Source: Escherichia coli
GTDB taxonomy: Bacteria; Pseudomonadota; Gammaproteobacteria; Enterobacterales; Enterobacteriaceae
NCBI RefSeq assembly: GCF_003334385.1
Contig: NZ_QOWN01000087.1
Direction: 5' to 3' (one strand)
DNA: 4,288 bases
Positions 3,746-4,123 of the stretch are shown one piece after another. The notes under the pieces are model-generated. The model had not been told where the DNA came from and ran no database searches. It worked only from the letters and a program-made list of their open reading frames with translations. Every line of letters begins with the position of its first letter. Position 1 is the stretch's first letter. The translations under genes and the position numbers were made by a program.

Positions 3746-3767
3746 CCTGCCGCCTGGCGGGTTTTTT
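3746..3767 (+). terminator. Rho-independent terminator downstream of the 205-aa cargo ORF
   Basis: Stem CCTGCC (3746-3751) pairs with GGCGGG (3756-3761), including one G-U pair; loop GCCT (3752-3755); followed by TTTTTT (3762-3767). Confidence 0.55.
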
Positions 3768-3798
3768 ATGCCCAAAATCGCGTCAGTACAGTAAACAC

Positions 3799-3806
3799 GC
3801 TGGTGG
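3799..3806 (+). other. Chi octamer 5'-GCTGGTGG-3' (intergenic)
   Basis: Exact octamer at 3799-3806, between the first terminator and the small ORF. Confidence 0.6.
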
Positions 3807-3889
3807 TTGCGAATACGGGTCTTTCAGCTTGCTGGCTTTTTCGACAAGAGTTATTGGTGTGTCACGTTAACCGGAAAAGGGAAAAAGAC

Positions 3890-4087
3890 ATGCTAAAACA
3901 GCAGGATATGACAGAAACCGCCAGAGTGGTGTTTAATGAATTAAGTGCCACCGAACCGGCGACAGTCGGGGAGATTGCGCAGAATACTTACCTTTCACGC
4001 GAACGCTGCCAGTTAATACTGACCCAGCTGGTTATGGCGGGTCTGGCAGACTATCAGTTCGGTTGTTACAGACGCCTTCCGCAGTGA
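3890..4087 (+). CDS. Small hypothetical protein (65 aa) with winged-helix/HTH-like segment; possible DNA-binding regulator
   Basis: ATG 3890 has a purine-rich SD-like AAGGG (3877-3881) with an 8-nt spacer; stop TGA 4085-4087. The ORF track extends to GTG 3803 with no SD, which I consider less likely. Segment TVGEIAQNTYLSRERCQLILTQLVMAGLA has the look of a helix-turn-helix recognition unit. GC is about 50%. Family not recognised. Confidence 0.5.
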   Translation: MLKQQDMTETARVVFNELSATEPATVGEIAQNTYLSRERCQLILTQLVMAGLADYQFGCYRRLPQ

Positions 4088-4101
4088 AGGCTTTTTTATT
4101 T
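4074..4101 (+). terminator. Rho-independent terminator overlapping the stop codon of the small ORF
   Basis: Stem GCCTTC (4074-4079) pairs with GAAGGC (4086-4091); loop CGCAGT (4080-4085); followed by TTTTTTATTT (4092-4101). The TGA stop at 4085-4087 spans the loop/stem junction. Confidence 0.6.
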
Positions 4102-4115
4102 GTGGTAAATGGGCG

Positions 4116-4123
4116 GCTGGTGG
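4116..4123 (+). other. Chi octamer 5'-GCTGGTGG-3' inside a G/T-rich tract
   Basis: Exact octamer at 4116-4123, embedded in gggcggctggtgggtgtggtggttgttg just after the second terminator. Confidence 0.6.

Follow-up and report, generated by a model that had tools for sequence, protein, structure and literature searches.

Lambda 6S and StxS exemplify the short, terminated RNAs that arise in late transcription of the lambda and 82 type. In phage Mu, the small protein Com, a translational activator, is encoded just upstream of the toxic mom gene and opens an inhibitory structure in the mRNA. The pause element of the phage 82 late promoter pR′ is a −10-like sequence with an extended −10, and polymerase pauses there at +25 (PMC5001585, PMC4914094); 82Q is thought to bind its Q-binding element (QBE) as a dimer (PMC4914094). 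Here we analyzed a stretch of Escherichia coli DNA of 4,288 bases (the window), which represents the nin/Q/late-junction region of a lambdoid prophage and carries a 65-amino-acid (aa) open reading frame (ORF) between two hairpins. The preliminary description of the window had proposed this ORF as a possible autonomous regulator partnered with the 205-aa gene upstream. Our analysis points to a different reading, which we hold with high confidence: the ORF is very probably a cistron of the late operon and the partner of a DNA methyltransferase gene, and has been orphaned in this prophage. The coordinates of the features are collected in Table 1.

Judged from its codon pattern, the ORF is a real gene. 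In a comparison with eight relatives from Escherichia, Salmonella, Klebsiella, and Buttiauxella, the variable columns at the first, second, and third codon positions numbered 16, 10, and 52 of 65, whereas the in-frame extension upstream (3803–3889) gave 16, 18, and 17 of 29, with no third-position bias. This difference places the start at the ATG at 3890 and indicates protein-level selection on the gene. A longer ORF starting from GTG 3803 (94 aa) was considered and rejected, since the extension lacks codon periodicity and the conserved core across genera is 63–65 aa long. AAGGGA at 3877–3882 precedes the start, and the TGA stop codon lies at 4085–4087. The 122-nucleotide (nt) leader (3768–3889) and the 65-aa ORF are thus as first described, and the coding status is now backed by the codon pattern. 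The identical protein is found on at least 995 contigs; among 1.8 billion proteins, only 65 representative clusters matched, and those that could be placed come from Enterobacterales prophages. The family is narrow. Although on record since SfV orf47 and named by NCBI, the gene is uncharacterized.

Conserved gene order identifies the methyltransferase, and not the 205-aa cargo gene, as the true partner of the ORF. Among the related loci with enough downstream sequence, 81 of 88 have, no farther than 400 nt from the ORF stop codon, a gene for a 350-aa N6_N4 methyltransferase; its start lies approximately 75–180 nt downstream, usually approximately 154. The two genes stay together behind at least four unrelated Q families and down to 41–62% protein identity, and the pair is also present in SfV (orf47–orf48), P27 (L23–L24, upstream of stx2e), mEp460, cdtI, phiNP, 1720a-02, and Stx2a/Stx2c phages. 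Enzymes of the M.EcoGII type are prophage-borne, beta-class proteins of approximately 349 aa with an N-terminal DPPY and a C-terminal FxGxG motif. The SfV orf48 product is 350 aa long and carries DPPYF near its N-terminus and FMGSGS near its C-terminus, the motif order of the beta class. M.EcoGII itself is a non-specific adenine methyltransferase that causes poor growth when constitutive and is silent in the lysogen; M.EcoGI is likewise silent in lysogens, and Murray et al. described the 1720a-02 methyltransferase as very similar to M.EcoGII (PMC5778455). From these features we infer that the partner belongs to the M.EcoGII family. A literature search found no publication that links the 65-aa gene to M.EcoGII-type enzymes or describes the RNA between the two genes, and a comparison of pR′ regions in Stx phages did not discuss the ORF (PMC6266700).

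Homologs of the methyltransferase were also seen outside this arrangement. In Aeromonas phage phiARM81ld (L104, 1662–1877), the start of a homolog with 52% identity is overlapped by a gene for a Com-like zinc finger, and an annotated promoter and terminator precede the homologous gene of N15, ahead of the lysis genes (L105, 1576–2035). These two cases suggest that the methyltransferase family heads the late or lysis region in unrelated phage groups, with different small upstream regulators.

The position of the ORF ties it to late transcription. It always lies downstream of Q and on the same strand, and in SfV, mEp460, H1, and the loci L003 and L099–L101 it precedes the lysis genes. In the window, as in SfV, mEp460, and several metagenomic loci, its place on the late strand is past a Q-linked pause/terminator element and ahead of the lysis genes. 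The order in SfV is Q, an annotated terminator, orf47, the orf48 methyltransferase, a terminator, and S R Rz. Given this position, Q-modified polymerase would have to read through the ORF. The preliminary description had treated the ORF as a unit separate from the Q-dependent late transcript, which in this form is not supported; what we found is essentially the outcome that it had named as refuting, a conserved component of the late cassette.

Because the upstream hairpin follows a conserved Q82-type element, as in the K-12 prophage DLP12 upstream of the lysis genes, we take it to be most likely tR′, on which Q antitermination acts. Positions 3743–3751 pair with 3756–3764 around a G+C core (3746–3751 with 3756–3761), and U6 follows at 3762–3767 (z = −2.2 for the fold). 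Of 57 distinct upstream regions from related loci, 53 have a hairpin with a T-run at this place, and the SfV record annotates a terminator at the equivalent place. The terminator first reported at 3746–3767 is therefore real by fold energy, U6, and conservation, although a consensus scan of the window did not list it. The conserved string TGTTAAGAGTGGT(T/C)ACT...CTTAAACC, followed by the hairpin and T-run, is also present in DLP12, where TGTTAAGAGTGGTTACT...hairpin stands directly upstream of essD and the lysis genes and the nmpC/IS5 cargo separates quuD from the element. Cargo-less relatives, such as strain 2012EL-2448, begin their homology to the window at 3712, 27 nt past the Q stop codon. 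With the other Q families, too, the hairpin is the first terminator past the site of Q loading; a Klebsiella locus has a lambda-like promoter (TTGCAA-17-GATATT), then a TAATTT repeat, and then the equivalent hairpin. The StxS-type tR′, which lies 258 nt from pR′, was considered as the equivalent and rejected, as it goes with a different Q type and is not homologous.

Within this element, TGTTAAGAG most likely acts in pR′ as the pause element that depends on sigma-70, and the alternative is that it serves as the extended −10 of the promoter itself; under either reading, the hairpin at 3746 is the first terminator past the Q-loading site. A palindrome is centered 23–23.5 bp upstream of TGnTAAGAG in every Q82-type locus, and its sequence co-varies with the helix-turn-helix (HTH)-like segment of the Q82-family antiterminators. 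Seven different palindromes were found in the window and 11 loci (L001, L009, L011, L013, L044, L050, L068, L094, L097, L098, and L101): TACGTACGTA (the core of TTTACGTACGTAAA), TTTACGATCGTAAA, GCGGTCCGC, GCGTACGC, GGAATTCC, TTCGTAACGAA, and, in the window, TGTTATAACA. They look like a natural allele series of Q-binding elements. A palindrome set at a fixed distance from a −10-like sequence also agrees with what would be expected of a site for dimeric Q beside a sigma-70-dependent pause element, as published for phage 82. A literal sequence search for phage 82 pR′ returned nothing relevant, and the comparison with phage 82 rests on published descriptions. The phage 434B record contains the DLP12-type region and carries no promoter annotation for it, and the paper on the DLP12 lysis cassette reports no start site.

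The place just past the hairpin may also have received an insertion in some relatives. In the Salmonella locus L003, a 139-aa lipoprotein-like moron lies between two near-identical terminators (3240–3275 and 3855–3880; CCCGC...GCGGGTTTTTT GTA.C.GAAAC), which suggests an insertion just past tR′ that also duplicated the terminator. In the equivalent position, mEp460 and an Stx2k phage each carry a homologous moron.

Table 1. Features of the window, with strand and the basis of each assignment
Feature	Position	Strand	Basis or remark
Q antiterminator gene, Q82/DLP12 type	2580–2972	+	PHROG 79, E = 3e-47
AT-rich 205-aa WYL-like cargo gene	3039–3656	+	phrog_8498; weak WYL matches; GC 0.35–0.37
Palindrome TGTTATAACA, candidate Q-binding element for the Q allele of the window	3687–3696	.	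position and covariation with the Q HTH
TGTTAAGAG, extended −10-like element	3712–3720	+	conserved in all Q82-type loci, including K-12 DLP12
Intrinsic terminator, most likely tR′	3743–3769	+	−14.4 kcal/mol and U6; SfV annotation
Chi in the leader	3799–3806	+	only moderate conservation among relatives
Near-invariant leader block CTTGCTGGC...AGAGTTATTGGTGTGTCA (also written as ending AGAGTTATnnGTnTGTCA)	3827–3864	+	cross-genus conservation
65-aa winged-helix gene	3890–4087	+	SfV orf47 / P27 L23 family; phrog_331
Second intrinsic terminator	4074–4101	+	stem and T-run; overlaps the stop codon
AATGGGCGGCTGGTGGGTGT, 5′ arm of the long spacer hairpin	4108–4127	+	invariant in 20/20 relatives except one compensated variant
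Chi within the 5′ arm of the spacer hairpin	4116–4123	+	
Prophage small RNA STnc100, first 47 nt	4242–4288	+	RF02076, 30.2 bits, E = 7e-4; cut at the window end

The second terminator has a 6-bp stem (4074–4079 with 4086–4091) and the tail TTTTTTATTT, with compensatory changes in three of its four pairs across relatives. The preliminary description had placed a terminator at 4074–4101, overlapping the stop codon of the ORF, and this stands. The T-run after the ORF occurs only in the E. coli lineage (15 of 25 distinct 3′ ends). In the relatives, this terminator is helix 1 of a structured spacer of approximately 140–150 nt that separates the ORF from the methyltransferase, is near-invariant, and is conserved even more than the leader of the ORF. 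An alignment of SfV (L012, 3196–3344) with 19 other loci supported six helices, with 97.8% of cells paired. Seven compensatory pairs were counted, against 3.4 ± 1.0 in shuffled alignments, of which 0 of 500 reached seven; sliding the pairing partners left 0–2. The SfV spacer folds with z = −3.2. Helices 2 and 3 form a long hairpin, the 5′ arm of which is AATGGGCGGCTGGTGGGTGT and contains Chi. Helix 4 is nearly invariant and pairs the 12 nt directly before the methyltransferase AUG in 95.5% of cells; these 12 nt contain no obvious Shine–Dalgarno sequence. Rfam assigned no family to the SfV leader and spacer, with sub-threshold matches over the terminator region only. The spacer, for which no Rfam family was found, may thus be an undescribed cis-regulatory RNA.

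The window retains only the beginning of this spacer. Positions 4090–4127 correspond to the sequence just 3′ of the ORF in methyltransferase-bearing relatives, and 4201–4288 (from 4118 in one relative) matches approximately 1.5–2 kb farther downstream in them. The junction falls at approximately 4127/4128, between GGCTGGTGGGTGT and a similar second copy, CTGGTGGCGGGTGT (window 4116–4130; L022, 5017–5040), and the repeats at the deletion, CTGGTGG(C)GGGTGT, are Chi-like. The split match and the repeats at the junction indicate that the methyltransferase and most of the spacer were deleted by recombination between Chi-like repeats, which removed the 3′ arm of the long hairpin together with the gene. 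The resulting order (ORF, terminator, half hairpin, STnc100, nanS-p) is also seen in strain 2012EL-2448 and phage PhiR5_1, and at least 195 complete E. coli genomes show the orphan arrangement. The mosaic breakpoint lies exactly at a Chi site.

The partial STnc100 was the only match of the window in Rfam at E ≤ 1. In relatives, STnc100 lies downstream of the methyltransferase or stx and upstream of nanS-p; there the full RNA ends, ahead of the nanS-p esterase gene, at the CCCCTCCGGAGGGG hairpin. The 5′ edge of STnc100 carries a TTGACT hexamer. The possibility that STnc100 is the pR′ leader RNA was rejected, since it lies downstream of stx2B in Stx2 phages.

Such a deletion could have left the ORF in this prophage as a functionless remnant, intact only because the loss of the methyltransferase is recent. 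The junction at Chi-like repeats and the absence of the presumed RNA target agree with this explanation, as does the 100% identity of orphan copies to copies in methyltransferase-bearing loci. However, the orphan arrangement is widespread, and the ORF, its leader, and both hairpins have remained intact in it. We therefore regard a mere remnant as somewhat doubtful; moreover, it is compatible with the explanation that we favor and is not a true alternative to it.

The leader of the ORF is highly conserved. Across genera, 31 of its 63 columns are invariant, compared with 13 of 65 third codon positions, and the core of the leader block and its spacing are kept down to 41% protein identity. Inspection of the leader by eye revealed neither motifs of the LexA, CRP, or CII type nor a conserved dyad. 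The leader segment GGTGTGTC is able to pair with the start-codon region: 3855–3863 (UUGGUGUGUC) can pair with 3886–3894 (GACAUGCUA), which would sequester the start codon of the ORF. This stem has an energy of −4.9 kcal/mol and the whole leader a z of 0.47; it is the sole consensus helix predicted there, weak and nearly invariant. The leader also has promoter-like geometry, with TTGCTG (3829–3834) and TATTGG (3852–3857) separated by 17 nt.

The last feature leads to a second explanation, in which a nested promoter in the leader starts transcription near A3864 independently of Q, for example in lysogens, and the ORF encodes a repressor that contributes to the silencing of the methyltransferase or of other genes. 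If so, the terminators would delimit a nested unit, and the initial claim of an autonomous unit would be partly right. Conservation of the leader block far exceeds that of synonymous sites, and the spacing of the block is kept as described above; the single freely varying base of the block corresponds to position −13 of the would-be extended −10; a terminator past the ORF is useful only against polymerases without Q modification; and the gene is retained without the methyltransferase. On the other hand, the hexamers match the sigma-70 consensus at 6 of 12 positions, the −10 lacks its near-invariant final T, and a promoter scan found no promoter-like site in 3768–3889. Relatives beyond the E. 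coli lineage have no T-run after the ORF, so that the methyltransferase would be co-transcribed, and its constitutive transcription conflicts with the silence of M.EcoGI and M.EcoGII in lysogens (PMC5778455), unless translation is blocked. Leak-through at tR′ is sufficient to explain the second terminator. On balance, a nested promoter seems unlikely to us.

A third explanation concerns the protein itself. The AlphaFold model (21 homologs) has a predicted local distance difference test (pLDDT) score of 92.9 and consists of three helices (residues 9–16, 26–33, and 37–49) followed by a beta-hairpin wing (strands 53–56 and 59–62). In Foldseek, the DNA-binding winged helices of OhrR, MarR, and IclR matched with template modeling (TM) scores of 0.77–0.80, the winged helices of SelB, which bind RNA hairpins (SelB–selenocysteine insertion sequence, SECIS), were also matched, and the best matches were the N-terminal winged-helix dimerization domains of S-adenosylmethionine (SAM)-dependent methyltransferases, a generic fold at E of approximately 1e-3. 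The winged-helix-turn-helix (wHTH)-like character first assigned to the ORF is thus confirmed by model and structure search. Of the sequence searches proposed in the preliminary description, Pfam gave only sub-threshold wHTH families (TrmB, MarR_2, HTH_24, and DprA_WH; none at E ≤ 0.001), the TrmB match (PF01978) having an i-Evalue of 0.0013 and a score of 19.0, below the family threshold, and the search of PDB sequences found nothing significant. No NCBIfam family matched the protein, PADLOC returned one weak, uninformative match, and phrog_331, to which the ORF belongs, has no assigned function in PHROGs. Characterized TrmB regulators possess a C-terminal sugar- or effector-binding domain. 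The database name “TrmB family transcriptional regulator,” given by NCBI, therefore overstates what is known of the protein and calls for caution.

The protein could act together with the methyltransferase at the protein or DNA level, as an accessory or dimerization subunit, in the targeting or shielding of sites, or as a reader or anti-restriction factor for phage DNA rich in N6-methyladenine (m6A). The strict linkage of the gene pair and the best Foldseek matches would suit such a role, some prokaryotic winged helices sense m6A (PMC11037411), and the acidic net charge is suited to protein–protein contacts. However, M.EcoGII alone is fully active and non-specific (PMC5778455), the fold matches are generic only, and the invariant leader and structured spacer would be left unexplained. 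We consider this role improbable.

The cargo gene has a different history from that of the ORF. The plus strand of the window carries, in order, the end of a LexA-like gene, RusA (192–587), KilA-N (738–1565), DUF968 (1567–2562), Q, the WYL-like gene, the block of the 65-aa ORF, and the start of STnc100, and 2560–3800 is 100% identical to strains UPEC 26-1 and UPEC957C. The C-terminal HTH-like half of Q (from approximately 2726) is AT-rich and allele-specific, and Q shows weak similarity to sigma-70 region 4. Phage homology ends at 2725, and homology to cargo-less E. coli prophages picks up again at 3712. Between these points lies an AT-rich mosaic block (2726–3711; GC 0.34–0.43), in which the WYL-like cargo gene stands together with the C-terminal, DNA-binding half of Q and the palindrome that is the candidate site for Q. 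Because Q, the cargo, and the palindrome share this block, sequence context links the cargo to the Q allele, or specificity module, and its binding site and not to the 65-aa ORF; lying between Q and the late-promoter element, that is, between the specificity domain and its cognate site, the cargo would travel with both. GC rises from the values of the cargo gene to 0.475–0.505 across the ORF, so that the return to about 50% GC noted at the outset is a real shift. A CTCCTG/CAGGAG stem at 3007–3030 spans the region just upstream of the WYL-like gene, including an AGGAGG ribosome-binding site, and this stem may exert translational control over the cargo gene.

A check of co-occurrence, suggested earlier, revealed no consistent pairing of the two ORFs: the cargo gene accompanies the 65-aa ORF in only 2 of approximately 100 fetched loci, and among E. 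coli genomes the cargo gene is found in 67 and the ORF region in 3,024. An autonomous unit with its own promoter and two insulating terminators, encoding a regulator or antitoxin-like partner of the cargo gene, is so improbable as to be effectively excluded, since, although the two genes are adjacent on one strand, terminators lie on both sides of the ORF, and the fold is a wHTH, they hardly co-occur, cargo-less relatives have the same terminator–leader–ORF block directly after Q, the cargo belongs to a separate AT-rich block with the Q C-terminus and palindrome, and the conserved neighbor of the ORF is the methyltransferase.

The window is rich in Chi octamers (GCTGGTGG). Six were found, compared with 0.16 expected from shuffles, at 494, 1798, 2069, 2198, 3799, and 4116; all except that at 2198 are on the plus strand (5/6). 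RecBCD entering from the cos/lysis side recognizes Chi in the plus orientation. The last two of these sites flank the ORF at 3799–3806 and 4116–4123, as had been noted.

We propose the following model. In this lambdoid prophage, the ORF is very probably the first cistron of a late operon that depends on Q. The late promoter would fire constitutively and its transcripts would terminate at 3762–3769; upon induction, Q loaded at the palindrome and pause element would take the polymerase past both hairpins. The winged-helix protein would be made first and would then modulate the production of the toxic methyltransferase, as a dedicated nucleic-acid-binding regulator acting on the leader DNA or the spacer RNA, and the two terminators would form two locks in series that hold the methyltransferase silent in lysogens. 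In the window, the 3′ hairpin of the orphaned gene would act as a terminator just upstream of STnc100, and the winged-helix protein has been left without its presumed target. Taken as a whole, with both the genomic reading and the regulatory role, this is probably the best explanation of the locus; for the part that assigns the protein a regulatory role on the methyltransferase, our support is tentative and falls somewhat short of even.

The best mechanistic guess, reached by analogy, is a regulator of the toxic methyltransferase that resembles Com or a C protein. A transcriptional, C-protein-like role on the invariant leader and a Com-like role are equally possible. In its most specific form, the analogy would make the 65-aa protein an RNA-binding translational switch, a non-homologous analog of Mu Com that acts on a structured leader of approximately 140 nt absent from Rfam and times M.EcoGII-type enzymes, with the window copy as an orphan; we consider this version possible, though rather unlikely in all its details.

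Several observations weigh against the model. The gene is intact in the orphan genomes, at least 195 in number, without an adjacent methyltransferase, which may reflect either an independent function or a recent deletion. M.EcoGII is active when cloned alone, and the 65-aa protein is thus not needed for catalysis. The identification of the M.EcoGII family is based on a statement in a paper, protein length, and motif order, not on direct alignment. The protein is slightly acidic (net charge approximately −1), which is unusual for a high-affinity nucleic-acid binder, and spacer helix 4 is so nearly invariant that it draws little support from covariation. At the promoter, no convincing −35/−10 pair was seen upstream of TGTTAAGAG, and the phage 82 pause region has, by description, GCC at +15 to +17, compared with TGG in these loci. 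This difference and the missing promoter hexamers make the register, as counted from the start site, uncertain.

This study also bears on how the M.EcoGII family is silenced and timed. These enzymes are hyper-methylating and harmful when constitutive; they have found wide use as a reagent and are common among lambdoid prophages, including those of Stx phages. The cassette of terminator, leader, winged-helix gene, spacer, and methyltransferase provides a directly testable hypothesis. In P27, 1720a-02, and several Stx2a/Stx2c phages, this cassette stands ahead of stx and behind Q, so that toxin output may be affected by the terminators and RNA structures of the cassette. The window alone represents an ordinary, catalogued prophage gene with its presumed target deleted, and the value of the finding lies in the cassette of the relatives and the Q–palindrome series. 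The co-varying palindromes of the Q82-type loci offer a natural dataset on DNA recognition by the least understood Q family.

The nearest counterparts of the locus are SfV orf47–orf48, P27 L23–L24, and mEp460 gp52–gp53. Their homologous small ORFs are 94–98% identical to that of the window (55% for mEp460), and the upstream terminator, the leader, and the position after Q are the same. The three phages keep the methyltransferase and the full spacer, both of which the window has lost; conversely, the WYL-like cargo between Q and the late-promoter element distinguishes the window from them. Compared with the late control of lambda and phage 82, the window likewise has Q, a candidate binding site, an extended −10-like element, an intrinsic terminator, and late genes (PMC5001585, PMC4914094, PMC7547250). 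In contrast to those systems, the promoter hexamers and start site of the window were not located, the sequence that follows the −10-like element departs from what is described for phage 82, and a cargo gene separates Q from the element.

The 65-aa protein shares the fold of three helices and a beta-hairpin wing with TrmB, MarR, and IclR factors, but it is a bare domain, lacking any effector-binding or dimerization domain. It resembles the C proteins of restriction–modification systems, in which a small DNA-binding protein encoded upstream times a potentially lethal DNA-modifying or DNA-cleaving enzyme. However, C proteins are dimers with an HTH of the Xre type, recognize palindromic C-boxes, and have a nuclease under their control, whereas the 65-aa protein is a winged helix; its leader contains no C-box-like dyad, and no nuclease gene lies nearby in SfV, P27, mEp460, or the fetched loci. 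The comparison with Mu com–mom shows differences as well, since Com is a zinc finger (CxxC...CxxC), the 65-aa protein is a winged helix with neither a zinc-finger motif nor homology to Com, and the target gene is gone from the window. Nevertheless, in Mu a small gene directly precedes a harmful DNA-modification gene in the late transcript, an order matched in the 81 of 88 related loci; the start of the Mu enzyme is buried in RNA structure, and helix 4 is predicted to do likewise in the relatives; and in phage phiARM81ld a Com-like gene itself precedes a homolog of the methyltransferase.

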